A stretch of DNA of 64,000 nucleotides from Thermoplasmata archaeon (GCA_034667745.1 JAXDQP010000062.1:958-64957); one strand, 5' to 3'. Shown: positions 8,624-46,393, numbered from the stretch's first letter. Program-made: numbers and translations. The notes: generated from the sequence alone by a model not told the origin.

Positions 8624-8624
8624 G

Positions 8625-8702
8625 GGAGGCCTGGGATTTCGGCGATTTGGGGAGGTGTGGGGGATTCCTAAAATCTGGGAATCGCTGGAATCCCAGGCCT
8701 CC
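8625..8702. repeat. MITE-like palindromic element, type A (copy A2, 78 bp)
   Basis: Left arm GGAGGCCTGGGATTTCGGCGATT 8625-8647; right arm AATCGCTGGAATCCCAGGCCTCC 8680-8702; between convergent argD and regulator gene ends. Confidence 0.8.
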
Positions 8703-8712
8703 CACACTCGCC

Positions 8713-30128: not shown

Positions 30129-30137
30129 CCAGTCTGA

Positions 30138-30242
30138 ACAGGGATTTCGGGGATTCCGGGGACCTTCGGTCATCCCTGTGCGATGTAAATAGGGAATTCA
30201 GTGGTTCCAGGAAACTCTCCCCGGAATCCCCGAAATCCCTGT
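30138..30242. repeat. MITE-like palindromic element, type B (copy B1, 105 bp), perfect 25-bp inverted repeats ACAGGGATTTCGGGGATTCCGGGGA
   Basis: Arms at 30138-30162 and 30218-30242 are exact reverse complements; 10 nt after MCM stop. Confidence 0.85.
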
Positions 30243-30318
30243 CCGGCTGGGGGGAGGGACCCGGCCTCATCCCTCCCCGTTATGTAGGGGTCCCTCGTAG
30301 GAAAAACCGAAGGAAACC

Positions 30319-30621
30319 GTGTTCGCCGTCAAGAACTACCAGCAAGGGCTCCAGCGCCTCCTGGCCGCGTGCGACGAGGAGCTTCTCGGCACCCGCCACA
30401 GCGAGGGCAAGTTCCGGCTGGACGTGGCGCCGAACTTCTACGACGGCATGCGCGTGGGGGCGCCCGAGCTGGGCCACTACCTGAAGTCCTGCACCGTGGC
30501 GAACCTGGTGGGGCCGCGCACCGTCGGCGTCGCGGTCGAGCTGGGCCTCGTGGACCCCGGCAACGTCCTCACCGTGGGGGGCGTCCCGCACGCGCAGGTG
30601 CTGGTGATGGACCTCTCATGA
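30319..30621 (+). CDS. hypothetical protein, 100 aa, co-transcribed with NMD3
   Basis: ATG ORF whose stop overlaps the NMD3 start (ATGA). Confidence 0.4.
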   Translation: MFAVKNYQQGLQRLLAACDEELLGTRHSEGKFRLDVAPNFYDGMRVGAPELGHYLKSCTVANLVGPRTVGVAVELGLVDPGNVLTVGGVPHAQVLVMDLS

Positions 30622-31679
30622 TGCAGACCTGCGTGGAGTGCGGCGCCCAGGTGCCCAAGCTCATCGGCGGCTGCTGCCCGGACTGCTTCGTCAAGAAGGA
30701 GGCCCTCCTGATGGTCCCCGAGGTGCTGGACGTGGAGCTGTGCGCGCACTGCGACGCCCGCCACGTCGGCGCCCACTGGTTCGACCCCGACGAGGGCGTG
30801 CCGCTGTCGCACATCCGCGAGGAGGCCCTGCGGGGCTCCGTGCGGGTGCATCCCCTGGTGCGCAGCGCCGACGTGGAGATCGTGGAGCGGGTGCAGGACG
30901 AGCGCAACTTCCAGCACACCGTCCGCCTCGCGGGCGACGTCGAGGGCGTGCCCGTCCACGGCGAGTCGAAGGCCCTGGTGCGGATGCGCAAGAGCGTCTG
31001 CGACCGCTGCAGCCGCATGTTCGGCGGCTACTACGCGGCCATCATCCAGCTGCGCGGCAACCAGCGCGACGCGCGCCCCGAGGAGATCAAGCGGGCGCAC
31101 AAGGTCATCGGCGACGAGATGGACCGCCTGCGCGCCTCCGGCAACCGGCAGGCGTTCCTCACCAAGTCCGGCCCCGTCCCGGGCGGCTTCGACTACTACA
31201 TCGGCGACATCGAGGCGGCGCGCATCATCTCCAAGCTCATCGCCTCCCGCCTCTTCGCCACCGTGCAGGAGACGGCCAAGCTGGCGGGCCGCAAGGAGGG
31301 CGAGGACATCTACCGCGTCACCTTCCTGGTCCGCATCGCCCTCTACTCGACCGGCGACTTCGCCCGGCGCGGCGCCGAGGGCCTCGTGCAGGTGCTCCAG
31401 ATCGACAAGGGCAAGGTCCTGGTCTACGACATGGGCACCCACCGCCGCGACAAGGTCCCGGAGGAGGAGTTGCGCCGCCTGGGCGGCCCGGAGCTCCTGA
31501 AGGAGGCCGTCCTGGTGAGCCAGGACTCGGGAAACCTGCAGGTCTTGGACCCGGTGTCCCTCCATACCGTGGACCTGCCCCGGCCAGAAGGCTACGTGGC
31601 CGATGGAGCCACAATTTGGGTGCTTCGGCACGAGGAACGGCTGTTCGTTCCCCCGGTCCTGCCTGCACACCTGAAATGA
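30618..31679 (+). CDS. NMD3 family protein (ribosomal large-subunit export/biogenesis factor homolog)
   Basis: N-terminal double zinc ribbon CVECG..CCPDC..CAHCD and later CDRC; family length ~350 aa; upstream in-frame extension from 30369 rejected. Confidence 0.75.
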   Translation: MMQTCVECGAQVPKLIGGCCPDCFVKKEALLMVPEVLDVELCAHCDARHVGAHWFDPDEGVPLSHIREEALRGSVRVHPLVRSADVEIVERVQDERNFQHTVRLAGDVEGVPVHGESKALVRMRKSVCDRCSRMFGGYYAAIIQLRGNQRDARPEEIKRAHKVIGDEMDRLRASGNRQAFLTKSGPVPGGFDYYIGDIEAARIISKLIASRLFATVQETAKLAGRKEGEDIYRVTFLVRIALYSTGDFARRGAEGLVQVLQIDKGKVLVYDMGTHRRDKVPEEELRRLGGPELLKEAVLVSQDSGNLQVLDPVSLHTVDLPRPEGYVADGATIWVLRHEERLFVPPVLPAHLK

Positions 31680-31730
31680 TTTATATAGGTCTGGCAGCAA
31701 ACCAAGCTCGTCCCTGGGAGTCCGCCGCTT

Positions 31731-32120
31731 TTGACCCAACGAATCCTGACCCTCGAAGACTTGGCAATGGCTGTCTCCAACCGAATCGGCATCGACGAGG
31801 AGGACGCCATGCGCGACGCGAACTTCGTGATGGACATCTTCGGCTTCGACGACCGCGTCATCGACAACGTCCTGGAGCCCGAGGACCGCCAGCTCTTCTA
31901 CATCCTCGAGGAGGAGGGCATGCTCACCACCGAGCGCGAGGAGACCACCCTCTACGACGGCCGCGAGTGGCGCACCCACTACTGGCTGTTCAAGAAGAAC
32001 CAGGTCTTCCTCATGTCGGAGGAGGAGCGCGAGGTCCGCCGCCGCAAGAAGGCGCAGCCGACCGAGGCCACCGTCTACACCCAGATCCCTGACGAGATGT
32101 GGGCCAGCCGGCAAATCTGA
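31731..32120 (+). CDS. conserved hypothetical acidic protein, 129 aa
   Basis: ATG ORF; unknown function. Confidence 0.4.
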   Translation: MTQRILTLEDLAMAVSNRIGIDEEDAMRDANFVMDIFGFDDRVIDNVLEPEDRQLFYILEEEGMLTTEREETTLYDGREWRTHYWLFKKNQVFLMSEEEREVRRRKKAQPTEATVYTQIPDEMWASRQI

Positions 32121-32193
32121 GCCCGCGCCCGCGCTCCCACTTTCACCCCTCTCCCCAACATCCCTTTTTCGCTCCAATCCCTGCCGGGTCCCG

Positions 32194-34176
32194 GTGCGAC
32201 TTCCCTACGCCCCCCGGCCCGGCCAGGAGGAGATGGGCGCCGCCATCGAGGCCGCCCAGAAGGAGGGCATGCACCTCCTGGTGGAGGCGGGCACCGGCAC
32301 CGGCAAGACCATCATCGCCCTCAGCGCCACGCTCGCCACGACGGACCGCGACGCCCGTCGCCTCGTCTACGCCACCCGCACCAACAGCCAGCAGAGCCAG
32401 GTCGTGGCCGAGCACAGCGCCCTCCAGGACGCCGGCCAGGCGCCCGGCCTTCTCATCCCCTTCATGGGCCGGCGCCAGTACTGCCCGCTGCTGCGGCTCA
32501 AGGACGAGTTCAAGGACGGCACCCCCGAGGAGCTGGGCCGCCTCTGCCGCGACGCCAAGCGCAAGGCGCTCCAGCAGCACGAGACCGGCAAGCCCGTCGA
32601 CGGCCACTGCCCCTTCTACCTCAAGCTGCTCCAGGACGGCCCCGACCCCGTCGAGGCGCTCCTCTCGGAGGGCGGCCTGGACGGCGGCCGGCTGGCGGCG
32701 CGCATCGAGCAGGCGGGCTCCTGCCCCTACGAGGCCCTCAAGCTCCTGATGCCCAAGGCGCGCACCGTCGTCGTGCCCTACATCTTCCTCCTCGACGACC
32801 GCCTGCGCGGCACGCTCTTCGAGTGGATGGGGACCAGCGCAACCGAGTGCCACCTCATCGTCGACGAGGCGCACAACCTCCCCGACGCGGCGCGCAGCCA
32901 CCACAGCCCGAAGCTCACCCGGGGCACGCTGCAGAGGGCGCAGAAGGAGGCCGAGGAGTACGGCGACCCGCAACTGGCCAAGCTGACCCTCACGACCAGC
33001 GTCCTCGACGCCCTGCTCGGCGCCCTGCACGACCTCGCGGACGAGCACGTGCGCGACGGCGAGGACGGCCTCGTCCCCCCCGACGGCCTCGACGAGGCCC
33101 TGATGCGCCGCCTGCGCCTGCCGACCCCCGCCATCCAGCGCATCGCCACCGACCTGGAGCGCTGGGGCGAGACCATCCGCGAGGACCGCCGCGCCAAGGG
33201 CCGCCTGCCCCGCAGCCACCTCGGCGCCATCGGCGCGTTCCTGAGCTTCTGGATGGCCAGCCGCGACGAGCCCTACGTCCAGCTCGTGGCGGGCGGCGAC
33301 AACCCCAGCCTGGAGATGTTCCTGCTCGACCCCGCCGCCGTCCTCGGCTGGCTCGGCGAGTTCCACAGCACGACCCACATGAGCGGCACCCTCGCCCCGC
33401 TGGAGGACCACCGCACCCTCTGCGGCCTCGACGCCGCGGGCACCACGCAGAAGGTGCTGCCCAGCGCGTTCCCCGCCGGCAACCTGCGCATCTACGGCCT
33501 CGAGGGGGTGCACCGCCGCTTCGAGGCCATCCAGCGCGACCCCGGCCTCGTGGCGCGGCAGCAGGAGGTCGCCCGCGAGGCGCTGCGCCGCTGCCCCGGC
33601 CGCACGGCCCTCTTCTTCCCGAGCCACCAGATGCTGCACGACTACCTCGAGGAGGGGTTCCTGCACGGCACCGGGCGCCAGCTCCACGTCGAGGAGCCGG
33701 AGGCCAGCACCGCCGACCTCGTCCGCCTCGTCGGCCGCTTCAAGGAGGACCCGTCGGGCAAGGCGCTGCTGCTCGGCGTCCTGGGGGGCCGCCTGTCCGA
33801 GGGCATGGACTTCCCGGGCAAGGCGATGGAGCACCTGCTCATCTTCGGCATCCCCTACCCGCGGCCGTCGGCGCGCGGCCAGGCGCTCATCCACCACTAT
33901 GACCGCAAGGCCGGCAACGGCTGGCAGGTCGCCGTCCACAACCCGGTCGGGCGGACGCTGCGGCAGGCCGTCGGGCGCCTGATTCGCGGCCCTGACGACA
34001 CCGGGACGGCCATTGTCCTTGACGACCGCGTCGTGCGGTTCCACGCCCACCTGAAGGGGCTGCGGATGGTCGCGGAGGTCGGGCAGATGGAGCCGCCGGG
34101 GGCCTCTTCCGATGCCGGCGATTCCTACCGCACCGCCGACACCCTCGCCAGGAAGGCCCCTCCTGGAGTGACATAA
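32194..34176 (+). CDS. xpd: XPD/Rad3-family 5'-3' DNA helicase with Fe-S cluster domain
   Basis: GTG start; Walker A EAGTGTGKT, DEAH box VDEAHNL, four Cys (YCPLL, CRDAK, CPFY, CPYEAL). Confidence 0.9.
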   Translation: MRLPYAPRPGQEEMGAAIEAAQKEGMHLLVEAGTGTGKTIIALSATLATTDRDARRLVYATRTNSQQSQVVAEHSALQDAGQAPGLLIPFMGRRQYCPLLRLKDEFKDGTPEELGRLCRDAKRKALQQHETGKPVDGHCPFYLKLLQDGPDPVEALLSEGGLDGGRLAARIEQAGSCPYEALKLLMPKARTVVVPYIFLLDDRLRGTLFEWMGTSATECHLIVDEAHNLPDAARSHHSPKLTRGTLQRAQKEAEEYGDPQLAKLTLTTSVLDALLGALHDLADEHVRDGEDGLVPPDGLDEALMRRLRLPTPAIQRIATDLERWGETIREDRRAKGRLPRSHLGAIGAFLSFWMASRDEPYVQLVAGGDNPSLEMFLLDPAAVLGWLGEFHSTTHMSGTLAPLEDHRTLCGLDAAGTTQKVLPSAFPAGNLRIYGLEGVHRRFEAIQRDPGLVARQQEVAREALRRCPGRTALFFPSHQMLHDYLEEGFLHGTGRQLHVEEPEASTADLVRLVGRFKEDPSGKALLLGVLGGRLSEGMDFPGKAMEHLLIFGIPYPRPSARGQALIHHYDRKAGNGWQVAVHNPVGRTLRQAVGRLIRGPDDTGTAIVLDDRVVRFHAHLKGLRMVAEVGQMEPPGASSDAGDSYRTADTLARKAPPGVT

Positions 34177-34284
34177 AAGACAACCCCTTTATATGCACGA
34201 GAAATGGAGGTCAATACGGAAGCGGTGTGCTGGAACTTTTGAGTGCATCCCATCCCCTCCTCGTGAGGCCAGTGCCCCTTCCTC

Positions 34285-34320
34285 GGTGAGTGTGCCGGCG
34301 TCAAACCCGGCACACTCACC
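34285..34320. terminator. perfect 14-bp stem hairpin GGTGAGTGTGCCGG-(8 nt)-CCGGCACACTCACC followed by T-rich tract on + strand; candidate terminator for xpd, possibly bidirectional with pyrI
   Basis: Read directly; followed by TTAATTCTCTCTCGCAATTTTCT. Confidence 0.5.
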
Positions 34321-34430
34321 GTTAATTCTCTCTCGCAATTTTCTAAGCGTCGCTACGCAACTTTCTGAACGAGGTCCGCAGGACACAGGCGCCTCGCCGA
34401 AGGGCTGCATCCAAGTGCGGGACGCACCCG

Positions 34431-34721
34431 CTACCAGCGCTTCTTCTCCGCGATGTCGTAGTTGCGGATGACGCTCAGGGTGCCGCGCTTGCTGATGGCC
34501 TGCACCTTGCGGATGTCCTCGGGGCTCAGCTCGACGTCCTCGAACTTCAGCACGTCCTTCTGGCCGCTGCGGCCGCTGGGAAGGTTCATGCTGAGGCTGA
34601 CGACCTTGCTGCTGCCCTGCACGGGGTGGCCGAGCGCCTGGATGATGGCGAGCGCCTTGCCGGGCTCGATGTGGTCGAGGACGGTCCCGTTGCGGATGGG
34701 GACGATCTTGAACTCCTTCAT
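34431..34721 (-). pseudogene. pyrI: aspartate carbamoyltransferase regulatory chain, allosteric domain only (zinc domain missing)
   Basis: 96 aa aligning to the PyrI N-terminal domain (IRNGTVLDHI, NLPSGRSGQKDVLKFE, IRNYDI) and terminating where the C4 zinc domain should begin; no Zn-domain coding sequence in any frame downstream. Confidence 0.6.
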
Positions 34722-35602
34722 GCGTCACCCAGGAGCGCGGAGAGGACTGCCATGCGGACGGGCACGGCATTCCGGGCTTGGTCAAAATACTTGGCCGCGG
34801 GGTGGGCGTCCACGTCGGCGGCAATCTCGTCGATGCGCGGCAGCGGGTGCATGACGATGGCCCGGCTCTTCGTGCGCTGCAGCAGCGCCGCGTCGATGCG
34901 CAGGGTGCCCTTGACCTGCTCGTAGGCGGCGGCGTCGGGGAAGCGCTCCTTCTGGATGCGCGTCATGTACAGCACGTCGCAGGTGGCCGCGGCCTCCTCC
35001 AGGGTCATCGTGCGGATGCCCTTGCCGACCTCGGCCGGCAACTCCAGGCCTGGCGCGGCGACGGAGACCGGGTGGGCGCCGAGGCGGCGCAGCGCGGGGA
35101 CGAGGCTGTGGACGGTCCGGCCGAACTTGAGGTCCCCCACGAGCGCGACCTCCAGGTCCTCGATGCCGCCCTTGCACTCCTCCATCGTGTAGAGGTCCAG
35201 CAGCGTCTGCGTCGGGTGCTCGCCGGGGCCGTCGCCGGCGTTGACGATGGGGACGCTGCTCACGGCGGCCGCGCGCTTGGCCGCGCCCTCGACGGGGTGG
35301 CGCATCACGATGAGGTCGGAGTAGCCCGCCAGCATCCGGATCGTGTCCTCCAGCGTCTCGCCCTTCGCGCTGCTCGTCGTCGCCGGGTCGGAGAAGCCGA
35401 TGACGCGGGCGCCGAGGCGGTGCGCGGCGGCCTCGAAGCTCAGCCGCGTGCGGGTGCTCGGCTCGAAGAATGCCGTGCAGACGATGCGGCCGTCCAGGAC
35501 GTGCCGCTGCTCCCGCATCCCCTTCTGCATCTCGCGGGCCCGGCGGATGAAGGAACGCAGGTCCTCGTCGCTCAGGTCATGGATGCTGGCGAGGTGCTTC
35601 AT
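34718..35602 (-). CDS. pyrB: aspartate carbamoyltransferase catalytic chain
   Basis: STRTR motif, HPLP motif; ATG at 35602; ATGA overlap with pyrI. Confidence 0.9.
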   Translation of the reverse strand: MKHLASIHDLSDEDLRSFIRRAREMQKGMREQRHVLDGRIVCTAFFEPSTRTRLSFEAAAHRLGARVIGFSDPATTSSAKGETLEDTIRMLAGYSDLIVMRHPVEGAAKRAAAVSSVPIVNAGDGPGEHPTQTLLDLYTMEECKGGIEDLEVALVGDLKFGRTVHSLVPALRRLGAHPVSVAAPGLELPAEVGKGIRTMTLEEAAATCDVLYMTRIQKERFPDAAAYEQVKGTLRIDAALLQRTKSRAIVMHPLPRIDEIAADVDAHPAAKYFDQARNAVPVRMAVLSALLGDA

Positions 35603-35627
35603 GGCCCACCCGGTTGCGTTTGCGCGA

Positions 35628-35700
35628 TAGCCCCGACCGGATTCGAACCGATGCCAAAAGCTCCAGAGGCTCCTATCCTTGACCACTAGACTACGGGGCT
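35628..35700 (-). tRNA. tRNA-Gln (anticodon CTG)
   Basis: Manual cloverleaf: A1-U72 acceptor AGCCCCG/CGGGGCT, anticodon loop CTCTGGA, T-loop TTCGAAT; 73 nt, CCA not encoded. Confidence 0.75.
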
Positions 35701-35907
35701 TTGTATCTCGTTTCGGTGCTGACCCACCGGCTTTGGGATAGGAACACGTGGAGCTTGGAGGACCAAGTCCAGTGGTCAACTTCGGCCACACAAGACCCCC
35801 ATATAAGGAAAATGGACCTGTGAACGACGCCCGCGCCGTCCACCGCCCCCTTGCCCAGATGCGGCATGGCCATCGCTAGGCAGGAGATGTCATCCAGGTG
35901 CGACAAC

Positions 35908-36300
35908 TTAGGGCGCTGTGCCGACTTGGCGCAAGACAATCTCCTCGGTTTGGCCCACCAGTAGGCAGACGGACCATCCGCAGGAAATGATGGCGCAGAT
36001 GCCATTGAACGTCCATGTGCCGCTGCCGACGCTGAAGTTCGGCACCCAGACATGCGCGCCGATGCCAAACCGGCTCGACTCGGGCCGAACCGGGACCAGG
36101 GGAAGAGGCTCGCTGCCCTCCGTCTTCAGGACACAAGGTCCGCTCACCACGCAGATGTCCACACCATAGCTTTGGCATTCCACGGCGACCGTGATATGGT
36201 CGATGATGTCCGACGGGTTGGGCAGGGGAGGCGTTTCCGCGGAGACGGAGGGGAGGAAGACAATGAGTCCGACCAAGGCCATGCAGGCAGAGCCACGCAT
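35908..36300 (-). CDS. small secreted protein, 130 aa, with signal peptide
   Basis: MRGSACMALVGLIVFLPSVSA signal; Cys-containing. Confidence 0.45.
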   Translation of the reverse strand: MRGSACMALVGLIVFLPSVSAETPPLPNPSDIIDHITVAVECQSYGVDICVVSGPCVLKTEGSEPLPLVPVRPESSRFGIGAHVWVPNFSVGSGTWTFNGICAIISCGWSVCLLVGQTEEIVLRQVGTAP

Positions 36301-36350
36301 GGTTCTGCATCAAATGCACTCAGACCTTAAGCTTACGCTGGCGGATTTTG

Positions 36351-37226
36351 TCAAGTCCTAAGGGAAAACTCTCTGACTTCCCTTCCCTGAACAATCCCCG
36401 TCTGGACCGCCATCGTCCCGCCGCTGGATGACTGCATCACCGCACCTCCATGTGCGGCAAGGGTGCCCGCGTTCCCAACGTAGCTCAACAGGACGGTGTC
36501 GGTGACGTTGGCCCAGACGGAGTGGCCCGCGTTGACCTGATGCAAACGGCCGGGTTCCGTGAACGCGCCCGGCTGGGACGCCGTTGCTTCGCCGCCTCCG
36601 ATGTAGTCGTACACATCCATGCCCCCGCGGAAAACGTGGTATTGGACAGCTGGAGGGGAAGATTGGTCGTCAATCTGGCCCATCAGCGCGCTGAAACCCA
36701 ACTGGGCAAACGCGTCGGCAACGGTCTGGCTGTTGACAATCAGTTCAAGGACGTAGAAGTCGGGTCGGGTGGTGGGGTCTGGCGACGCGACGCTGCTGGG
36801 GACCAGCGCAGGAACCCAGAACTCGGAAATCTGGAAGTTCTTCACGACGGTTTGATTGTCGAGCACGATGGAATCGCAGGAGAACAGGTTAAGGTTGCCT
36901 TGCACGAAGCTGCTGCCCGCCACAGGGTTGGGCGAGTAGCCTTCGGGGAGCAGTGCCTTCACCTTCGATGCCTCTGCCGTGACGTGCGTGGCGTAGCCGA
37001 AGCAATCGTTCATCTCGAATCGGTGCGGAACCGGGGGCGGGAGCGAACAGGTGGGCACGCCGGCCTCCGGACATTTCGGCGGCGTTGTGGTGGGGGACGT
37101 CGTCGGCGTGGGGCCGCTGGACATGGTCTGCGTCGGGTCCGGCTTGGCGTGGTTCGTGCAGCCGGCAAGCAGTACGACAGTGGCCAGCAGCAGGGAAGTG
37201 ATATGGCGGGGAGGAGGGCTGATCAC
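36351..37226 (-). CDS. lipoprotein with Thr/Pro-rich linker
   Basis: Signal plus lipobox LLAGC, then PTPTTSPTTTPP linker. Confidence 0.55.
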   Translation of the reverse strand: MISPPPRHITSLLLATVVLLAGCTNHAKPDPTQTMSSGPTPTTSPTTTPPKCPEAGVPTCSLPPPVPHRFEMNDCFGYATHVTAEASKVKALLPEGYSPNPVAGSSFVQGNLNLFSCDSIVLDNQTVVKNFQISEFWVPALVPSSVASPDPTTRPDFYVLELIVNSQTVADAFAQLGFSALMGQIDDQSSPPAVQYHVFRGGMDVYDYIGGGEATASQPGAFTEPGRLHQVNAGHSVWANVTDTVLLSYVGNAGTLAAHGGAVMQSSSGGTMAVQTGIVQGREVREFSLRT

Positions 37227-38950
37227 GTTAGGCCTCGGGAGCCGGCGGATTGGGTGCTGGCGGCGCTGGCAAAACGGGGATTGGTTTGCGGCAATAAACC
37301 CGCTTCCGCTTGAAGGGGCATGGCTTCACCGCCGGGCTTGCCCGTGAGCGCCCTGCGGGCATCCAGGAGCGCCATCGCCTGGGCGCGGATGGCCCAAAAT
37401 GTTTGGCGTCCGGCAGGAACGCGTTCGAGGACCCCTTGGCGTTCCATCAGGTGGATGTGGTAAGAAAGTCCACTCCTACCTGAGGTGTGCGGGATCTGGG
37501 CAACCAAGTCCCGGAAGGCAACGGGTCGACCGGCGTCCCGCAAGATGTCCAGGAGCGCCCCCCGCAGCGGATGGTTGGCGTGCGCCAGCACCACCTGGTG
37601 GAGCTCAGACACTTTGGCGGTCGCGCCGACGCCAAGGGGCGCGAAATGCTGGCGGTGGCCTTGCTGGTAGACTTGGATATGGCCACCTTTTTGGAGGATG
37701 GCGATGTGGAAGGCGAGCGTGGTCTTCCGGATGCCGAATTCCGCGGCAAGCTGCGTCGCGGTTGTCCCAGGGGATTCCTGAATCTTGCGCAGCATGCAAA
37801 CCCGCGTGGGATGATGCAGGGCTTGGGCGCGGTTGCGGCCCAGTACGACCAACCGAAGGTCACGGCCCAGGGATGTGAAGGCCAAAGTCAGCCACGCGAC
37901 GAGGCCGATTCCGCCCACGACTGCAAGGCCTTCTCCCAAGCGGGAACCGAGGACGCGCAATCCGTCGATGCCAAGGAACGTCGCGGTTCCGTTAAGGCGC
38001 CAATGGGAGCCGGCTCCATCGTAGGTTCCCTTCATGTGGAAGTCGCCAACAGCCTGGACGAGGCCAATGCGGGAGGAGTACCTGGCATCGACATCGGTGC
38101 GAGTCACATCTGTGAAGGCCATGTCGCCTCGGATTGCGCCGTCGAAGTCGCCCAGAAGAAGGTTCCACAGGCTTCCGCGGTCCTGATGGAGTTGCAGTGT
38201 CACCGCATTCGGCGAAGCAATCACCACATAGGTTTGGTCATAGACGCCCCCCGCCGTGTAAACGGTGGGTTCGTCGGCCGTGAGGCCTGAGCGCGGGGAA
38301 AAACCGGTGGAGATCTCGCGGTGGAGTTGGCCATTGTCGAGGATAACCCGAGCGCCGTAGGTAATGCCAAGGAAGGCTCCGGCAAGGGACTGGGGGCCCG
38401 GCTGGTCGCGGTGGAGACGTCCGAATGGAGCCTGGGCACGGGCCAAGGTGACGGGTTCATGGAGATGGTGGGGGAAGCCAGGTGGAATCTCAACGGACTG
38501 CATTCCGTTCAGGTTTAGCTGGAGGTCTTGGGCATCGGCCTGATAGGGCCGGAATTCGATGGTGGCGGGCGTCTGCTCAGAGAGGATTGTGACGTTCCCG
38601 GTGAATGGGAAATCCTCCAGCATTTGTTCCGGCAATGGAGCGTTTGCCTCCGAGTTTCCAATGGGGTTTTGGCGCGAGGTGGTGACCTGGAGGATGGGGT
38701 CTGTCACGACCTGGACGCGGGCGCCTTGCACGGCAAACGCGGCGGTGACAGTGCCGTTGTGCCAAGCCGAGTTGTAGATGACACCGTGCAGGGAAGCACG
38801 GCCTTGCAGGGTGCCAGTGAGGGTGAAGGTGCCCGTTGAATCGACCGTCCCAGCCAGGGGAAAATGGGACTCGGACGCGCCGTTCGCAGGCAAGGCCACC
38901 GCCAGGATGGCCAGCAGGAGCAAGGTGGACGACCAATGGTTGCCCGTCAT
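37223..38950 (-). CDS. membrane-anchored regulator: N-terminal signal/anchor, ~420-aa extracytoplasmic beta-rich domain, one TM helix, cytoplasmic tandem winged-helix DNA-binding domains
   Basis: Start MTGNHWSSTLLLLAILAVALPANG; TM GLAVVGGIGLVAWLTLAFTSLG; wHTH-like segments ..TTATQLAAEFGIRKTTLAFHIAILQKGGHI.. and ..LLDILRDAGRPVAFRDLVAQI..LSYHIHLMERQGVLERV; TATA-like box about 19-25 nt upstream of the ATG. Confidence 0.55.
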   Translation of the reverse strand: MTGNHWSSTLLLLAILAVALPANGASESHFPLAGTVDSTGTFTLTGTLQGRASLHGVIYNSAWHNGTVTAAFAVQGARVQVVTDPILQVTTSRQNPIGNSEANAPLPEQMLEDFPFTGNVTILSEQTPATIEFRPYQADAQDLQLNLNGMQSVEIPPGFPHHLHEPVTLARAQAPFGRLHRDQPGPQSLAGAFLGITYGARVILDNGQLHREISTGFSPRSGLTADEPTVYTAGGVYDQTYVVIASPNAVTLQLHQDRGSLWNLLLGDFDGAIRGDMAFTDVTRTDVDARYSSRIGLVQAVGDFHMKGTYDGAGSHWRLNGTATFLGIDGLRVLGSRLGEGLAVVGGIGLVAWLTLAFTSLGRDLRLVVLGRNRAQALHHPTRVCMLRKIQESPGTTATQLAAEFGIRKTTLAFHIAILQKGGHIQVYQQGHRQHFAPLGVGATAKVSELHQVVLAHANHPLRGALLDILRDAGRPVAFRDLVAQIPHTSGRSGLSYHIHLMERQGVLERVPAGRQTFWAIRAQAMALLDARRALTGKPGGEAMPLQAEAGLLPQTNPRFASAASTQSAGSRGLT

Positions 38951-38965
38951 GTTCCGGGGCTTCCA

Positions 38966-38978
38966 CCCGTCAGTCCGT
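38966..38978 (-). promoter_or_regulatory. TATA-box-like element (AAATATA on minus strand) about 19-25 nt upstream of the 38950 start; suggests a leaderless transcript
   Basis: Read directly from sequence. Confidence 0.35.
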
Positions 38979-39111
38979 ATATTTGTCTTGGCGTGACGGG
39001 ACTCCGATGGCGACAGCATGTGGCAAAAACCACCAGGCTGTGGTATTATGCCACTGACCCTTGGCTTGGCTTTGGATGTCTGGCCTCGCGACCGACACGG
39101 AGACCCAAACC

Positions 39112-40251
39112 ATGCATCGACCCAACACCCCACAAACCCCCCGGACCGCCGCCAAGGTTGGCGCCGCCATCTTTTTGGCCGCCACCCTGGCCGCCATTCC
39201 GACCTCGCAAGCGTTCCAAACTGTGCAGGCCAGGGACCAGGCGCTCGTCAAGGTCTGGAACACGCTTTGCAACCCAGTCCAGATTGCCGCCGCGCCGCCG
39301 AACGGGCCGCCAACTCCTGGAAACGGCCCACCTCCGCCGGGCGCGAACGCCCTTGGTGCAGGCTACCGTCCCGTCTATTGCCAGAACACGAATGACCTCA
39401 TCCGCTTCCTCCGTGGCGGCGGCGGGCCAGGCCCATGCCAAGGTGACTTGGCAGTGTCGAACCTCTGCGGCCTGGACGCGGACCCCCTTGTTGCCTTCGC
39501 AGGTGGCCTCGTTGGCAGCGGCCTAGGCTGCGCCCAAAACGCGCCTGGCCCCGACGGGGGAGAGGGCAACCTCGGTCTTCTTGATGGCATGGCGCAATAC
39601 AGTGTGGGCGGCTTCGTCACCTACAAGAATCCCTGCGGCGACCTAACCCTCCCCACACCGCTCATTCCAGCCGGGTTTGACTTGGGCACCATCACTACGC
39701 CCCCGTTTGGGGCGCCCCGATTCACTCTTGACACGGGGTGCCAACACGAGCCCGGGAAGGCGTTTGCGTGGGACTACAACTTCAACATGGCCTTGGACGT
39801 TGGGCTTGCGGTCTATTCCGGCCAAGCCCCGTTCTACCTGGCCGGCTCCTCGGTCACTCTCCACATCACGCCGACGACGTTCTCCGTCAACGGAGGCGGC
39901 GGTGGGGACACGGAGGAAGGCTGCGTGGGCACGGAGCTTGCAGACCAAGCCATCAAGGCCAACCTCCTGATGACCCAGGCCAACGCGTACGTGAAGGCCA
40001 AGGCATGGCCCGTTGACGGGGATGTCCGCTACCTCAAACTCTCGACGGGTGACTGGCTGCTGGACTTTCCCGGGCACGGCCTCGGCACCCTGGACTTTTC
40101 GGAGACGATTGCGTCCGACGTCATCCACGTGGGCACGACCAAGTTCAGCTTCGAGGCGACCTGGGTCGTGCTGCAGACCTGCCCGGCCACCACCACGGTT
40201 TGCGCCGGTGGCGTGGTTTGGGAACGCGGCGACAGCCTCGTGACAACGTAG
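39112..40251 (+). CDS. secreted Cys/Gly-rich protein, 379 aa
   Basis: Signal peptide ..AAIFLAATLAAIPTSQA; many Cys; no recognisable catalytic motif. Confidence 0.5.
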   Translation: MHRPNTPQTPRTAAKVGAAIFLAATLAAIPTSQAFQTVQARDQALVKVWNTLCNPVQIAAAPPNGPPTPGNGPPPPGANALGAGYRPVYCQNTNDLIRFLRGGGGPGPCQGDLAVSNLCGLDADPLVAFAGGLVGSGLGCAQNAPGPDGGEGNLGLLDGMAQYSVGGFVTYKNPCGDLTLPTPLIPAGFDLGTITTPPFGAPRFTLDTGCQHEPGKAFAWDYNFNMALDVGLAVYSGQAPFYLAGSSVTLHITPTTFSVNGGGGGDTEEGCVGTELADQAIKANLLMTQANAYVKAKAWPVDGDVRYLKLSTGDWLLDFPGHGLGTLDFSETIASDVIHVGTTKFSFEATWVVLQTCPATTTVCAGGVVWERGDSLVTT

Positions 40252-40388
40252 GCCGAGAGGGGTTCAACTCTTTTCCTTCTTTTCCGAAAATCTGGAGTTC
40301 CATGCTGCACCGTGAAGCCATTGTCCGCACGCCAAAGCCTCTGCCGCAGCGAAGCAAGCTTTATCTTCCTGCTTCGGAAACGCGGTTC

Positions 40389-41258
40389 ATGCGGGAATCG
40401 TCGTGGCGTTTCGGCGTTCCCTTGCTTTTTCTGACGCTTGCCGTCTCGGGATGCGCGGGCGCCCCGCACGTCAATTCCGGCGCTCGTTCCTCTCCCCTGA
40501 ACGAATGGGACTACATCCTCCCCCATCAGCACGGGGCCTATGCGCTTCGTTACGAAATCAGTGGTCCCAAAGACCAAGAGTGCCGTGGGCACCAGGTCTG
40601 GTACCAGGCGAACAACCACTATGGCATCGATCAGTTGGTCTACCAGGAAGGCGGGGACTTGGGCGGCTCCTACGGCGAGCCTGCCGTCCACGCCCAGGTT
40701 GGGCCGTTGCTTGACACGCGCGATGACACCGGGACGGGAACCATCAACGTCAACCAGACGCTGACCTTCAGGCTCGACCCGGCCCGCGGCGCCTACGTCT
40801 CCTATTTCGGCAACCTCACGGCTGCGGACCCCGCGTTCGCCGCCAACTTCAATCTCCCCAACTCGCTTGAGCTCCACGTCCGTTGCCCCGCGGGAACCAC
40901 CATCAAGCTGCTGGGCGTTGGAACGGAGTCCATGCCGGTCCTGCTTGGGACCCTGAAAGGCGCTGCAACCGCGTCCCAGAGGGAACGGTTCGGCAGTGAC
41001 GTGGTTGTCCAAGGCAGCGCAAGCAAGACGTTCACCTCCGCGATGGTTTCTTTCCGGCTCGAGAGCGTCTCTGGGCTGAACGGTGCCGGGCTTGTCATGA
41101 TGAACCACCCAGCGCGGCAAGAAGCCTGGCCGATGTACAGCCTCCTTTCCAAGGAGTTCACGGACGGGCCGGGCGACTATTCCATCACAATCAATGATGC
41201 GCGGCCTGAAGGCCATTTCTTTGCCATTGCCATCGGGTTCAACCCGCCTGAAAGGTGA
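40389..41258 (+). CDS. lipoprotein, 289 aa
   Basis: Signal plus lipobox LTLAVSGC. Confidence 0.5.
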   Translation: MRESSWRFGVPLLFLTLAVSGCAGAPHVNSGARSSPLNEWDYILPHQHGAYALRYEISGPKDQECRGHQVWYQANNHYGIDQLVYQEGGDLGGSYGEPAVHAQVGPLLDTRDDTGTGTINVNQTLTFRLDPARGAYVSYFGNLTAADPAFAANFNLPNSLELHVRCPAGTTIKLLGVGTESMPVLLGTLKGAATASQRERFGSDVVVQGSASKTFTSAMVSFRLESVSGLNGAGLVMMNHPARQEAWPMYSLLSKEFTDGPGDYSITINDARPEGHFFAIAIGFNPPER

Positions 41259-41314
41259 CCGGAAGTTGTTGGTGGCCACAATCGGTTCTTGGAGGTCGTG
41301 TGTGGCCGCTTCGA

Positions 41315-41388
41315 TGGGCCTGGCCGGAATCGAACCGGCGACCTGCGCTTTGTAAGAGCGCCGTCATGAACCCCTAGACCACAGGCCC
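41315..41388 (-). tRNA. tRNA-Val (anticodon TAC)
   Basis: Manual cloverleaf: acceptor GGGCCTG/CAGGCCC, anticodon stem GCGCT/AGCGC with loop CTTACAA, T-arm GCCGG-TTCGATT-CCGGC; 74 nt. Confidence 0.85.
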
Positions 41389-41442
41389 GGGGCATGGGCC
41401 ACGCGGGGGACGCGATAAGCCATCCGCTGCCCGGGCGTCCGC

Positions 41443-42132
41443 CTAGTTGCCGGTGGGGCGCACGACGCCCTGCGTGTAGAGCAGGACGAGGAACGTGATG
41501 CAGAGCGTGAGGGCGATGCCGTAGGCGACCTTGCTCCAGCGCAGCACCTTGCGGCCGTCGAGCTGGCCGAACGGGAGGAGGTTGAGCAGGCAGAGGCCGC
41601 CGTTGGCGGTCGCGACGAGCGCCATCATGCGGGGCAGCGGGGCGTCGGGGTTGACGGCGAGGGCGAAGGGGAAGGCGATGGCGCCGATGAGGAGGTTGGT
41701 GCCGGGGCCGACGAGGCTGATGATGCCGTTCTCGCGGCGCGTCACCTGGCCCTGGATGACGACGGCGCCGGGGGCGGCGGCGAGCACGCCGATGCCCATG
41801 GCGAGCAGGAGGCTGATGATGAGGCCGGTGAACTGCGCGCGGAACTCGGCCCAGTGGCCGTAGCGCTGCGCGACGACCTTGTGCGCCAGCTCGTGCAGGA
41901 CGAAGCCGGAGCCGATGGCCATCAGCGAGTCCAGCAGGAGGGCGGGGGAGGGGAGGTTGTCGAAGCGGTAGGGGTTGCCGAAGCCGTCCTTGAGGACGAG
42001 GGCGAGGCACACGGTGAGGATGGCGATGGCGCCCGCGATGTGCAGCACCTCCTGCAGGCTGAACGTGATGCGGGGGCGCCCCGCGTGGGGCTTGGGCTGC
42101 GGGACGTAGAAGGGGTTGTAGGCGGGCCTCAC
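41443..42132 (-). CDS. M50-family (site-2-protease-like) membrane zinc metalloprotease
   Basis: HELAH zinc motif within TM region, multiple TM helices, LDG motif. Confidence 0.8.
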   Translation of the reverse strand: MRPAYNPFYVPQPKPHAGRPRITFSLQEVLHIAGAIAILTVCLALVLKDGFGNPYRFDNLPSPALLLDSLMAIGSGFVLHELAHKVVAQRYGHWAEFRAQFTGLIISLLLAMGIGVLAAAPGAVVIQGQVTRRENGIISLVGPGTNLLIGAIAFPFALAVNPDAPLPRMMALVATANGGLCLLNLLPFGQLDGRKVLRWSKVAYGIALTLCITFLVLLYTQGVVRPTGN

Positions 42133-43280
42133 CCGAACACCCGGAAGATGTAGAGGCCGGTCAGGAAGTTGCCGACGATGGCGCCGAGGTTGGTCAGCGC
42201 CGTCACGAGGAGGATGCGCACGACGCCGTTGCGCCAGAACTCGCCTAGGGTCTCAATCTGCTTGATGGCCTGGAAGTCGGCCACCTTCGGGGTGCGGACC
42301 TTCGCCTCGACGAGGCCCGCGAACCAGCCGGAGGCCAGCACGGGGTGGAAGATCTTGGTGGGCGCCGCGACGGCCGCCGTCAGGATGGAGAGGGGGTGGC
42401 CGAACGCGATGGCCGCGCCCGCGGCCGCGCCGATGCTGGTGAACAGGATGTAGGCGAGCAGGCTGCTCTTGAGGTGCTCGACCTGGCTCGTCACCAGCAG
42501 GTAGGCGAGGCCGGCGGCCAGGATGAGCGGCAGGGCGTAGGCGAAGACGCGGCCGAACGTGACGCGCTTCTTCGGCAGCGTGAGCAGGCCCTCGCGGGGG
42601 GGAATCCTGCTCGGGGACTCCAGCAGCCTGCGGATGCCGGCGAGGTGCCCGGCCCCCACCACGGCCACGAGGGGGCCGAAGGCGGCGCGCTCCTTGATGT
42701 GGCTCGCCATGAAGGAGTCGCGCTCGTCAATGAGGGCAATCTTGACCACGGGAGCGAACTTGGCGAACTGCTCCGTCATCTCCGTGATGGCGTCCTGCTC
42801 CAGCAGCTTCTCGACGTCCACGGGCTCGCGCTGGCCCGGCGTCAGGACCTGCCGCATGACGTTCCAGAACAGGCGCAGCTTGGCCCAGCCGCCCATCGCG
42901 CCGAAGCCGCGCTTGAGGGTGATGGCGACCTCGCGGTCGATGAGGACCACCTCGGCGCCGACCTCCTCCGCCACCTCGACGGCGCGCAGCAATTCGGTGC
43001 CGGGGGGGACGCCGGTCTCGCGGCCCATGCTGCCCTGCATCGCCGACAGGTAGAGCTGGAGCAGGAAGAGGTGCTGCTTCTTCTGGCGGATGACCTGGAT
43101 GATGTCGGTGTTCTGCCACGCCTCGGGGTCGCGCAGGGCCTTGAGGCGGCCCGGGTCGAGCTCGACCAGGACCTGCTTGGGGCGCTGCGCGCGGATGGTG
43201 CCCTCGACCTCGGCCACGCTGGTGGCGCTGACGTGGGCGGTGCCGACGACGGTGACGCCGCCCGGCAAGGTCTCAATCAC
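42129..43280 (-). CDS. TraB/PrgY-family protein
   Basis: GTG at 43280; GTAHVS motif, C-terminal TM helices; the upstream part of the long ORF (to 43889) is antisense junk. Confidence 0.7.
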   Translation of the reverse strand: MIETLPGGVTVVGTAHVSATSVAEVEGTIRAQRPKQVLVELDPGRLKALRDPEAWQNTDIIQVIRQKKQHLFLLQLYLSAMQGSMGRETGVPPGTELLRAVEVAEEVGAEVVLIDREVAITLKRGFGAMGGWAKLRLFWNVMRQVLTPGQREPVDVEKLLEQDAITEMTEQFAKFAPVVKIALIDERDSFMASHIKERAAFGPLVAVVGAGHLAGIRRLLESPSRIPPREGLLTLPKKRVTFGRVFAYALPLILAAGLAYLLVTSQVEHLKSSLLAYILFTSIGAAAGAAIAFGHPLSILTAAVAAPTKIFHPVLASGWFAGLVEAKVRTPKVADFQAIKQIETLGEFWRNGVVRILLVTALTNLGAIVGNFLTGLYIFRVFG

Positions 43281-43405
43281 GGACAGCGCACGCAAACGGG
43301 GGCACGATATGACGGTGTTGGATGGATGGCCGGCGCTGGCGGTCCACGCCACAACGCGCGCCGCCGTTGCCCATCCTTTAAGACCGGGCCTTCTGTCCGC
43401 GACGC

Positions 43406-44012
43406 CATGGGAGCCATCATCGTGACCGGGATCCCCGGCGTGGGGAAGACCACGGTCATGGAGGCCGCCGCCAAGGCGCGCGACCTGCGCATCGCCGTCT
43501 ACGGCAGCGTCATGTTCGAGGTCGCGAGCGCCAAGGGAATCGTGCAGTCGCGCGACGAGATGCGCAAGCTCCCCGCCGAGACGCAGAAGGCCATCCAGAA
43601 GGACGCCGCCAAGCGCATCGCCGGCATGGGCGACGTCATCGTGGACACCCACTGCTCCATCAAGACGCCCACCGGCTACCTCCCCGGCCTGCCCGCCTGG
43701 GTCCTCACCGAGCTTGAGCCGACCGCCATCGTCCTCGTCGAGGCGGACCCGAAGGAGATCCTGCGCCGCCGCCAGGGGGACGCCACCCGCAAGCGCGACG
43801 ACGACACCCTGGAGGCCATCGCGGAGCACCAGGAGTACAACCGCCGCTTCGCCGCCGCCTACGCCACCCTCACCGGCGCCACCGTCCACACCGTCCAGAA
43901 CAAGGACGGCGGCGTCGAGGCGGCGCTGGCGCAGATGATGCCCGTCCTCGGCTCCGCGCCCAAGCCCGGCGCCAAGGCGAAGGCCAAGCCCGCCACCGTG
44001 GGGGCGCGCTGA
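43406..44012 (+). CDS. adk: adenylate kinase, archaeal type
   Basis: P-loop GIPGVGKTT; archaeal AdkA-like length ~200 aa; part of the conserved adk-DUF106-cmk block. Confidence 0.85.
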
Positions 44013-44701
44013 TGGCGGCGGCTCCGGCCCGCAAGGGCGGCGCGGGGAACTTCCTGAACATCATCGGCATCGTCGCCGTGTTCTTCGTCCTCTTCAACGC
44101 CGGCCTGCGCAACCAGCTCGGCACCTGGGCCGGCTACGCCCTCGACCCCGCCATCGGCTTCGGCGGGCGCTTCCCCGTCCTCACCATCCTGCTGGCGGGC
44201 GCCATCCTGGTGGCCGCGACGACGGTGCTGCGCCACTTCACCACCGACTGGATCGAGACCGCGCGCACGCAGGCGTTCAGCCGCCACTACCAGAAGGAGA
44301 TGATGGCGGCGCGCAAGGAGAACAACACCTACAAGATCAAGAAGCTCACGGAGGCGCAGCCGGAGATGATGAAGCGCAGCCAGGAGATGAACAGCAAGCA
44401 GCTCAAGACCATGCCCATCACGATGCTGGTCGCGGTGCCGCTGTTCGCCTGGGTCAGCACCTTCCTCGGCCGCCTCGACTACACGTGGTACTCCGCGCCG
44501 TGGAACCCGAGCGTGGACATGTTCACCACCAACGGCATCCTGCCGTTCGGCGCGCACGGCTCCAGCCTGTTCCAGCACTGGATCCTGCTCTACATGACGC
44601 TCAGCATCCCGCTCGGCGCGCTCATCCAGAAGACGATGAAGTACTTCGCCTGGAAGGAGCGCTGGCAGAAGCGGCACCAGCACGGGGCCGCCAGCCCATG
44701 A
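44012..44701 (+). CDS. DUF106-family membrane protein (archaeal YidC/Oxa1-like insertase homolog)
   Basis: ATGA overlap with adk; three TM helices, KKL..AQPEMMK..Q amphipathic region; conserved position between adk and cmk. Confidence 0.7.
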   Translation: MAAAPARKGGAGNFLNIIGIVAVFFVLFNAGLRNQLGTWAGYALDPAIGFGGRFPVLTILLAGAILVAATTVLRHFTTDWIETARTQAFSRHYQKEMMAARKENNTYKIKKLTEAQPEMMKRSQEMNSKQLKTMPITMLVAVPLFAWVSTFLGRLDYTWYSAPWNPSVDMFTTNGILPFGAHGSSLFQHWILLYMTLSIPLGALIQKTMKYFAWKERWQKRHQHGAASP

Positions 44702-45255
44702 GCGGCGCCCACGCCGCCACCGTCACCGTCGGGGGCCTGCCCGGCACCGGCACCAGCACGCTGTGCAAGCTGCTGGAGCAGGAGCTTGGCCTGCCCTACC
44801 ACTACGCGGGCGCCCTGTTCCGCGCGGAGGCGCAGCGCCGCGGCATGAGCCTCGCCGAGTTCGGCGCCCTCAGCCAACGCGACCCCAGCATCGACGAGGC
44901 GCTCGACGACCGCCAGATTGGCCTCCTGCGCAAGGGCGGCATCGTCCTGGAGGGCCGCCTGTCGGGCTGGCTCGCGCACCGCCACAAGATTCCCGCCTTC
45001 AAGGTCTGGGTCACCTGCGAGCCGAAGGAGCGCATCCGCCGCATCGTGCAGCGCGACGGGGGCGACGAGACGGCGCAGCAGGCATCCACGGAGAAACGCG
45101 AGGCCAGCGAGGCGGACCGGTACCGCCGCTACTACGGCGCCGACCTGAACGACCTCGCGCGCTACGACCTCGTGCTGGACTCCACGACGGCGACCCCGCA
45201 GGAGCTGGCCGCGCAGGTCAAGCAGGCCCTCGCGCGGCAGGTGGCCAAGGCGTGA
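44698..45255 (+). CDS. cmk: cytidylate kinase, archaeal type
   Basis: P-loop GLPGTGTST; ATGA overlap with upstream gene. Confidence 0.85.
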   Translation: MSGAHAATVTVGGLPGTGTSTLCKLLEQELGLPYHYAGALFRAEAQRRGMSLAEFGALSQRDPSIDEALDDRQIGLLRKGGIVLEGRLSGWLAHRHKIPAFKVWVTCEPKERIRRIVQRDGGDETAQQASTEKREASEADRYRRYYGADLNDLARYDLVLDSTTATPQELAAQVKQALARQVAKA

Positions 45256-45265
45256 CCGAACTGAA

Positions 45266-45349
45266 ACAGGGATTCCGGGGATTTCGGGGACGCTCGTCCA
45301 CCTGCCTAGAGAGAGGCGCCAAGCTCCCCGAAATCCCCGGAATCCCTGT
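45266..45349. repeat. MITE-like palindromic element, type B (copy B2, 84 bp), perfect 25-bp inverted repeats ACAGGGATTCCGGGGATTTCGGGGA
   Basis: Arms 45266-45290 and 45325-45349 are exact reverse complements; the two 10-mers are in swapped order relative to B1. Confidence 0.85.
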
Positions 45350-45367
45350 TTCGTCGGGGGTCAGGGC

Positions 45368-46393
45368 GTGAGCGCCATGCCCCCCGGTCCCGTCCGCTCG
45401 GGGATGCTCCCGGCCGAGCGCCCGCGCAAGCGCCTCGTCCGGATGGCCGCCGAGACCGACGACAAGTACGGCAAGCGCCCCGAGGACCGCACCATGGCCG
45501 AACTCATGGCCGCAGGGGTCGTCCCGCTCGACAAGCCCGCAGGCCCCACGAGCCACCAGGTCGCGGCCTGGATGAAGGGCGTCCTGGAGGTCGAGGAGGT
45601 CGGCCACGGCGGCACGCTCGACCCCAACGTGACGGGCGCGCTGCCGGTGACCATCAACGGCGCCGTCAAGTCCGTCGGCGCTCTCCTGTCGGCCGGCAAG
45701 GAGTACGTCAGCCTGCTGCGCCTGCACGAGCCGCGCCCCGAGTCGGAGGTGCGCCGCGTCGCCGCCCAGTTCGTCGGGAAGATCAACCAGACGCCGCCCG
45801 TGCGCTCCGCCGTCGCGCGCAAGCCCCGCATCCGGCGCGTGTACTACCTCGACGTCCTGGAGTGCACCGAGCGCGACGTCCTGTTCCGCGTCGGCTGCCA
45901 GGCGGGCACCTACATCCGCAACCTCTGCGTGGACATGGGCCGCTCGCTCGGGACGCGGGGCCACATGCAGGAGCTGCGCCGCACCCGCACCGGCCTCTTC
46001 ACCGAGCAGGACCTCGTGACGCTGCACGACTGCCTCGACGCGCGCATCTTCTGGCAGCAGGACCCCAGCGACGAGGTCGCCCTGCGCCGCTGCGTGAAGC
46101 CCGTCGAGGCCGTCACGGCGCACCTCAACAGCATCACCCTGCGCGACTCCGCGGTGGACGCCGTCTGCCACGGCGCGCCGCTCGCGGTCATCGGCGTGGC
46201 CAGCCTGGACGCCGGCATCGAGGCGGGCGAGCCCGTCGCGCTCCTGAGCCTCAAGGGCGAACTGGTCGCGCTGGCGGAGGCCAAGATGACGAGCCGGCAG
46301 GTGCTGGACGAGGAGAAGGGCATCGCCGCCACGCCCAGCCGCGTCGTGCTGCGCAAGGGCACCTACCCGCGCACCTGGAAGAGCAAGGAGTAG
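45368..46393 (+). CDS. cbf5: tRNA/rRNA pseudouridine synthase Cbf5 (TruB family, with PUA domain)
   Basis: Catalytic GTLDP motif (HGGTLDPNVTG), C-terminal PUA-like region. Confidence 0.9.
   Translation: MSAMPPGPVRSGMLPAERPRKRLVRMAAETDDKYGKRPEDRTMAELMAAGVVPLDKPAGPTSHQVAAWMKGVLEVEEVGHGGTLDPNVTGALPVTINGAVKSVGALLSAGKEYVSLLRLHEPRPESEVRRVAAQFVGKINQTPPVRSAVARKPRIRRVYYLDVLECTERDVLFRVGCQAGTYIRNLCVDMGRSLGTRGHMQELRRTRTGLFTEQDLVTLHDCLDARIFWQQDPSDEVALRRCVKPVEAVTAHLNSITLRDSAVDAVCHGAPLAVIGVASLDAGIEAGEPVALLSLKGELVALAEAKMTSRQVLDEEKGIAATPSRVVLRKGTYPRTWKSKE

Follow-up and report, generated by a model that had tools for sequence, protein, structure and literature searches.

The 64,000-nt stretch of Thermoplasmata archaeon GCA_034667745.1 analysed here (JAXDQP010000062.1:958-64957; hereafter the window) has a GC content of 69.7% and carries two short palindromes, B1 directly downstream of mcm and B2 between the cytidylate kinase gene cmk and cbf5. 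How did such hairpins come to lie between housekeeping genes, and why do their arms match so well? An earlier note on this DNA had likened them to MITEs (miniature inverted-repeat transposable elements) on the strength of the sequence alone, and the comparison with related genomes presented below agrees with that view. B1 and B2 are probably copies of a short (~110–125 bp), non-coding, palindromic foldback mobile element, part of a larger group that proliferated in a GC-rich (~70%) uncultured clade of Thermoplasmatota. Our verdict is that the element is a real MITE-like foldback element, and that the group to which it belongs is apparently undescribed.

Insertion of B1 and B2 at two gene junctions

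Pfam matches confirmed the flanking genes that the earlier note had named at both sites. The two junctions are composed as follows.

28014-30128, + strand: mcm, Pfam MCM, with the stop codon TGA
30126..30250: full extent of B1, with TGACC as outer tip (30126-30130); L252, L256 and L253 lack it in the orthologous spacer
30138..30162, + strand: B1 left arm, ACA GGGATTTCG GGGATTCCG GGGA; 25 nt, 100% complementary in a repeat search
30163..30217: B1 loop, 55 nt, of lower GC content and with no relation to the B2 loop
30218..30242, − strand: B1 right arm, the exact reverse complement of the left arm
30319-30621: DUF424 gene, assigned by Pfam
Ending at 45255: cytidylate kinase gene (cmk), assigned by Pfam
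45249..45255, + strand: left target copy, GGCGTGA, at the end of cmk and including its stop codon
45253..45363: full extent of B2, with tips TGACC (45253-45257) and GGTCA (45359-45363); absent from L251 and L257
45263..45290, + strand: B2 left arm, GAAACA GGGATTCCG GGGATTTCG GGGA; 28 nt, 100% complementary
45291..45324: B2 loop, 34 nt
45325..45352, − strand: B2 right arm, the exact reverse complement of the left arm
45365..45371, + strand: right target copy, GGCGTGA, holding the GTG start of cbf5 at 45368
45368-46393, + strand: cbf5, Pfam Cbf5, with a GTG start at 45368

Orthologous loci were retrieved through protein homologues. They include L252 (DATLBS010000007), L251 (DATLBS010000016), L257 (DATAAI01) and L260 (JGI Ga0467070_0000341). 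Sequence scans added three loci of one sister metagenome-assembled genome (MAG), DATLBS01 (L014, L018 and L110), as well as L042 (JBHELM01) and the metagenome contigs L131 (Ga0079218_10408634) and L153. The Cbf5 and MCM proteins of the window match proteins from uncultured Thermoplasmata/Thermoplasmatota MAGs at 96% identity, and an exact-protein look-up of the window Cbf5 returned no record.

The spacer between mcm and the DUF424 gene measures 190 nt in the window, where it contains B1, versus 65 nt in L252 (MCM 96% identical), 48 nt in L256 (82%) and 124 nt in L253 (86%), all three without the element. A promoter-like block, GCCTCATCCCTCCCCGTTATGTAGGGG, is common to these spacers, and B1 sits between this block and the mcm stop codon. 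At the second junction, cmk and cbf5 overlap by 4 nt (GTGA) in both L251 (Cbf5 91% identical) and L257 (Cbf5 89%), and the 112-nt spacer of the window is therefore derived. The earlier note had assumed that a cmk–cbf5 spacer normally holds ribosomal-protein genes; this is not so in the present lineage, whose ancestral state is a direct 4-nt overlap of the two genes.

The empty cmk/cbf5 site in L251 and L257 reads GGCCAAGGCGTGAGCGCGG and contains GGCGTGA in a single copy. In the window this heptamer stands on both sides of B2, the hallmark of a target duplication. That GGCGTGA was duplicated explains why neither gene was lost when the insertion entered their overlap: cmk keeps its stop codon and cbf5 its GTG. 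A second case comes from L260, in which an element of the CACAGATT family between argF and an LplA-like gene is flanked by the perfect 9-bp repeat GGCGAAGCC (13/15 over 15 bp), while the corresponding site in the window and in L252 is a 20–25-nt spacer without an element of that family. The comparison of orthologous intergenic regions that had been proposed for these loci thus found empty sites at both B positions in sister genomes, showing that B1 and B2 both inserted after the split from them. The possibility raised alongside it, that the palindromes are conserved structured RNA genes kept at the same position in all relatives, is contradicted by their absence from these sites.

Many arms have TGACC as their tip, and the TGA stop codons of both mcm and cmk lie inside such a tip; mcm ends with TGA in the window versus TAA or TAG in relatives. 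Since the tips carry stop codons, insertion at gene ends is tolerated, even at junctions where stop and start overlap. In L260, the interval separating two convergent genes is taken up precisely by a CACGAA-family element (10670-10831), whose tip TGACC and mirror tip CGTCA supply the stops of both, and at the argF/LplA-like insertion of the same locus the new stop is located in the inserted DNA. Coding sequence can also be entered: the N-terminal region of argF (ornithine carbamoyltransferase) in L260 contains a complete CACGGATT-family palindrome in frame (~6985-7060, minus strand). The resulting protein has 355 aa versus 338–343 aa in three relatives, with ~13 residues added by the palindrome.

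Arm architecture and sequence families

The inverted repeats of B1 and B2 combine perfect arms of 25 and 28 nt with an imperfect outer extension to the TGACC tips, which in B1 pairs CCAGTCTGA with CCGGCTGG. The elements measure ~125 bp (B1) and ~111 bp (B2), and neither has an open reading frame (ORF) of its own. Perfect arms of 25 bp had been attributed to both; this is exact for B1, but the arms of B2 extend to 28 nt, 3 nt longer on each side than the interval 45266-45349. The arms had further been read as two 10-mers, GGGATTTCG and GGGATTCCG. The two share one G, which makes the actual repeat period 9 nt, and each arm contains three hexamer boxes. Tandem Repeats Finder (TRF) reports a period of 9 with 2.4 copies on the arms, and in register the arms of B1 and B2 read CAGGGATTY CGGGGATTY CGGGGA; in the box frame of a skeleton scan, the B1 left arm becomes CAGGGATTT CGGGGATTC CGGGGA.

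The core GGGATTYCGG occurs 13 times in the window versus 0.46 expected, a count reached by 0 of 100 shuffles, and eight of the 13 copies fall within B1 and B2. The core is also present in two further palindromes of the window, called type A.

1083..1281: A1, 42-nt arms, 81% complementary, 115-nt interior
8619..8708: A2, between convergent aminotransferase and ACT-domain genes, at a synteny breakpoint

Types A and B agree at 16 of 18 positions of their first two units, and their outer ends differ; the two are therefore sister subfamilies, in keeping with the kinship that had been proposed for them.

Outside the window, copies of the B-type family (the G family) are all intergenic and, among the matches listed, lie in L014, L018, L110, L042, L153 and L131. 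The scan of the genome collection with the degenerate query MCWGGGATTYCGGSGATT returned at least 120 matches, nearly all of them due to chance, the real ones among those listed being in L014, L018, L110 and L042. The metagenome scan with GGGATTNCGGGGATTNCGGGGA returned mostly 9-mer minisatellites, and the relevant loci among the matches listed were L153 and L131. At least six sequence families in the clade have the same layout; palindromes with other box sequences include those of CACAGATTN (L018, L251 and L260), CACGAATTN (L042, L250 and L260), CACCGAGAN (L250 and L261), CGCGGANNN (L014 and L252) and CGCCGATTN (L250).

When every arm is aligned on its first box, the common layout is two 9-mers of the form C-R-S-N-G-A-N-N-N followed by a third box C-R-S-N-G-A, so that each arm of all families has three hexamer boxes at 9-nt spacing. 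Outside the boxes stands CGAA(A/C), with which a short variable segment ends, and then, 0–25 nt farther out, the tip (T)GAC(C/G); on the inner side follow a loop of arbitrary sequence (9–157 nt) and the mirror-image arm. A strict scan for inverted pairs found seven in 148 kb of the close clade, none in 59 kb of more distant relatives and none in 817 kb of unrelated prokaryotic loci. With the families that the strict scan misses, the density comes to ~1 element per 10 kb. A literature search that included the arm sequences returned no prior description of these elements; its coverage was incomplete and is not proof of novelty.

Contig L131 contains, at ~90-300, a G-type left arm whose distant partner is a CGCGAA-type right arm (tips GACCGAA / TTCGGTC), with a CACGGAA array between the two; this element is either chimeric or nested. 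Three near-identical contigs from different samples (L205, L224 and L228; GC ~0.43), derived from a low-GC organism, display the three-box palindrome architecture in the sequence AGAAACTTG CGGGGATTG CGGGGATTG CGGGGA ... TCTCCG CAATCTCCG CAATCTCCG CAAGTTTCT.

We also examined the loops and immediate flanks of B1 and B2. Positions 45293-45313 of the B2 loop match the reverse complement of the cmk 3' end (45229-45249) at 16 of 21 positions, a weak likeness (20 of 2000 shuffles reach the score) that may be fortuitous or may be a vestige of the way in which the element inserted. A derivation of the B1 loop from the right flank was rejected as not significant, the score being reached in 213 of 2000 shuffles. 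Directly after B1, the window has a small extra hairpin at 30251-30278 (GGGGAGGGA...TCCCTCCCC). The L252 spacer lacks ~12 nt that include the 5' half of this hairpin, which has the look of a templated addition complementary to downstream sequence already in place.

Arm matching, turnover and viral arrays

Comparison of the left arm with the reverse complement of the right arm in 14 elements gave an identity of 0.95 for the hexamer boxes, 0.57 for the 3-nt spacers and 0.29–0.36 for the ninth position. In the four G copies outside the window, all eight variable positions are mismatched between the arms, whereas all four are matched in B1 and B2. The perfect arms of these two elements are thus an exception, because spacers are usually mismatched family-wide. 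Recent mobility and selection for a hairpin had been offered as the two ways to explain such perfection. The former fits insertions at sites that are empty in sister genomes; the latter is unsupported, since boxes match (95%) and spacers do not (about 50–57% family-wide), and RNA stability shows no bias towards the sense strand.

The order of the two 9-nt units, T and C, is indeed opposite in the two elements: both arms of B1 run T-unit then C-unit, and both arms of B2 run C-unit then T-unit. The earlier note had interpreted this as module swapping. In L153 and L110, the left arm is (C,T) and the right arm is (T,C). Copying of one arm onto the other, by template switching or by repair within the quasi-palindrome, would convert a (C,T)/(T,C) element into (C,T)/(C,T), the state of B2, or into (T,C)/(T,C), the state of B1. 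We infer that the flawless arms reflect a recent origin or intra-element arm homogenisation and not module shuffling, B1 and B2 being two homogenised versions of one element type.

Close relatives carry different elements at the same junctions. In the window, a G element occupies the cmk/cbf5 junction and a type-A element the end of the ACT gene. At the former, L250 (Cbf5 96%) has a CACGAA element and L251 and L257 have none; at the latter, the element is of the CACGAA family in L260 and of the CACCGAG family in L261. The elements of L250 are missing at the matching window sites. A2 is located exactly at the point where the window lacks 6.1 kb of L260 (10660-16817), between the ACT-domain gene and the aminotransferase gene; the missing segment comprises three genes, one of which encodes a 1463-aa Cu-oxidase-like protein. 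The neighbour gene at this junction is different again in L261, so that the neighbours of the A2 site differ in all three genomes compared, and one element of L252 lies at another synteny break. In L250, the adenylate kinase call (438-1217) exceeds that of L251 by ~59 aa; the gene caller had apparently continued through a palindromic element (452-545) lying upstream of the true start.

Similar arrays occur in viral contigs. Exact searches of IMG/VR returned 25 stretches for CACGAATTNCACGAATTNCACGAA and 37 for CACAGATTNCACAGANNNCACAGA on contigs of 29–70% GC; these 62 stretches (L262–L323) are 3×9-mer arrays of the CACAGA and CACGAA types, most of them single, intergenic and near a gene start. 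TTATC stands in front of some, which results in TTATCCACA, the DnaA-box consensus. Palindromic short-loop pairs like the archaeal elements were found in L296, L323, L306, L310, L311, L313, L318, L287 and L274, and L292 contains hetero-arm elements with a CACAGA left arm and a CACGAA right arm. L310, L311, L313 and L318 (54–66% GC) contain an exact copy of the 24-mer CACAGATTTCACAGATGACACAGA from the archaeal sister MAG (L018). The G family had no match in IMG/VR, no common gene was found beside the viral arrays, no family of neighbouring genes was present in more than four loci, and BLAST of the arrays against annotated phages retrieved only unannotated faecal contigs and chance matches.

It is conceivable, though rather unlikely, that the three-box, 9-bp-phased arm is the recognition array of a new transposition or DNA-binding enzyme and that the elements circulate between archaea and viruses. 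If true, a foldback-element superfamily that crosses domains and is served by a new mobilising protein would have been seen here for the first time. The target duplications (7–9 bp) have the same length as the 9-bp unit, which leaves open arm growth by capture of such duplications.

Mobilisation, competing explanations and known systems

If B1 and B2 are mobile DNA, a trans-acting enzyme would recognise the three phased hexamer boxes of each arm, and insertion would proceed via a staggered cut of ~7–9 bp in the style of DDE transposases; any effect of the hairpin (about −72 kcal/mol) on the polycistronic mRNA would be a by-product. Several observations weigh against this account. The cognate transposase or insertion sequence (IS) with GGGATTYCGG ends, named by the earlier note as a target for searches, was not found in the window or the retrieved clade loci. 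In the window and ~230 kb of clade loci, all arm pairs are at most ~210 nt apart and none has an IS-like spacing, and the gene tables of the retrieved loci contain no transposase Pfam and no autonomous partner with these ends. The right tip of B1 is not GGTCA. Flanking direct repeats are present at two insertions (7 bp at B2 and 9 bp at the L260 element) and not at B1, for which the spacer comparison with relatives revealed no recognisable target duplication; at B2, the duplication is 9, 7 or ~4–5 bp long depending on whether the element ends in CC..., GACC... or TGACC.... The presence of different families at one junction could reflect in-situ replacement instead of independent transposition. 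Finally, the 64-kb window holds two type-B and two type-A copies, and the copy number in the source genome is known for the window alone.

Locus L279, in which inverted CACGAA arrays lie 6.1 kb apart, was considered as an autonomous element and rejected: all its genes are on one strand, and the arrays are positioned at a gene start and inside an ORF. The window also contains a 5.6-kb segment (35701-41312, GC 0.60–0.66) between tRNA-Gln (35628-35700, − strand) and tRNA-Val (41315-41388, − strand). The two tRNA genes are adjacent in L252 and L258, which makes the segment a window-specific island. Checked as a transposase source, it had HTH_20 as its sole Pfam match (a 636-aa ORF at 37226-39133, − strand), and no integrase was recognised in it.

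Among other explanations, the elements might be REPIN-like, that is, hairpins of paired repetitive extragenic palindromes (REPs) that move as single strands. By analogy with the binding of Rep to hairpin-stem repeats, a single-copy HUH/Y1 enzyme, either a REP-associated tyrosine transposase (RAYT) or an IS200-like TnpA, would mobilise them, with the stem boxes as binding repeats. As in the REP/REPIN-RAYT systems of bacteria, there are extragenic palindromic doublets able to fold into long hairpins and dense in operon spacers, several families per genome and no internal transposase or other gene, and hetero-arm elements with common tips and different boxes (L131 and L292) would also suit such a system. 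We nevertheless consider it unlikely. REP units are small palindromes (20–40 nt, imperfect) with a GTAG or CGTC tag (PMC3733652), whereas the arms described here are tandem 9-mers without either tag in an archaeal host, and the 7- and 9-bp direct repeats flanking two insertions are not produced by IS200/IS605-type chemistry. No RAYT gene was seen, though whole genomes were not searched. Selection by the host would instead make the palindromes RNA hairpins, serving as mRNA 3'-end stabilisers, processing sites, terminators or translation uncouplers, with their perfection kept by selection. Their placement directly after stop codons within co-directional gene pairs, their very stable predicted folds (−73 to −81 kcal/mol, z-scores of −5 to −10) and the better folding of type-A elements on the + strand are consistent with this. 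Close relatives, however, have the same junctions without the element, the loops are mutually unrelated, and family-wide mismatches every 9 nt argue against selection for a continuous helix. Among ten elements of known sense, the sense strand is more stable in three and the antisense strand in six, with one tie. Rfam at the gathering score detected only tRNAs in the window, and E ≤ 1 added sub-threshold microRNA-like noise at B1 (~22 bits versus a gathering score of 50); B2 has no hairpin-plus-T-run, its right arm being trailed by TTT only, and one copy lies in frame inside argF. With these results, a role as host-selected RNA appears quite improbable.

Arrays of sites to which a DNA-binding protein of the host or of a virus would attach (in the manner of operators, iterons or centromeres), with dispersal as a secondary matter, merit a similarly low rating. 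Conserved hexamer boxes with spacers free to vary, a constant three boxes per arm in all families, and the similar, mostly single arrays just upstream of genes in many IMG/VR contigs (e.g., with TTATCCACA-like starts) are in line with such a function. On the other side stand the lack of a shared neighbour gene among the viral contigs, the presence of each neighbouring gene family in at most four loci, the G family without a viral match and, in the archaeal clade, the gain and loss of sites between sister genomes at housekeeping gene junctions. As long perfect palindromes are a known class of artefact, chimeric fold-back joins in metagenome assembly were considered as well, but this origin is hardly credible here: the elements are internal to a 64-kb contig with intact syntenic genes on both sides, the duplicated target leaves both reading frames whole, and related copies are present in independent NCBI and JGI assemblies.

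As mobile foldback elements, B1, B2 and their relatives can be compared with several known groups. Like prokaryotic MITEs (Correia/NEMIS of Neisseria, the SM-type of Sulfolobus and the IS-derived ones of haloarchaea), they are short, non-coding and intergenic, have terminal inverted repeats (TIRs), vary in presence among relatives, show a flanking direct repeat in two cases and supply functional signals, here stop codons. Unlike them, they have no known parental IS, arms of three phased boxes instead of a unique TIR, many families with one architecture and common tips, and loops that are unconserved within a family. The phased arms, the common tips and the unconserved loops also set them apart from REPINs, which they resemble in genomic habit. 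The arms of eukaryotic foldback (FB) transposons likewise consist of short tandem subrepeats around a variable or absent middle, but are hundreds of bp long and belong to eukaryotic hosts. Rickettsia palindromic elements (RPEs) can sit in frame in coding genes, as does the CACGGATT-family copy in argF of L260; most copies here, however, are intergenic, and sequence and architecture are unrelated. Integron attC sites are similarly imperfect palindromes of 60–140 bp that directly follow stop codons; their ends are conserved and their centres vary. The present elements differ in lying between housekeeping genes (mcm, DUF424, cmk and cbf5) without a cassette array or integrase context, and the attC boxes RYYYAAC/GTTRRRY are present in one arm only (L018, ACCTAAC).

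Catalogues of small non-autonomous repeats in archaea are poor, and the literature searched contained no description of any from these soil Thermoplasmatota. The unusual features of the present group are the single modular three-box arm used in many families, the stop codons carried by the tips, the repeated hits by different families at the same junctions in sister genomes and the location at synteny breakpoints. For work on these archaea, the elements can cause gene-call errors, such as extended N-termini or the in-frame insertion in argF, and they provide strain-level markers for these MAGs as well as a handle on the responsible enzyme.

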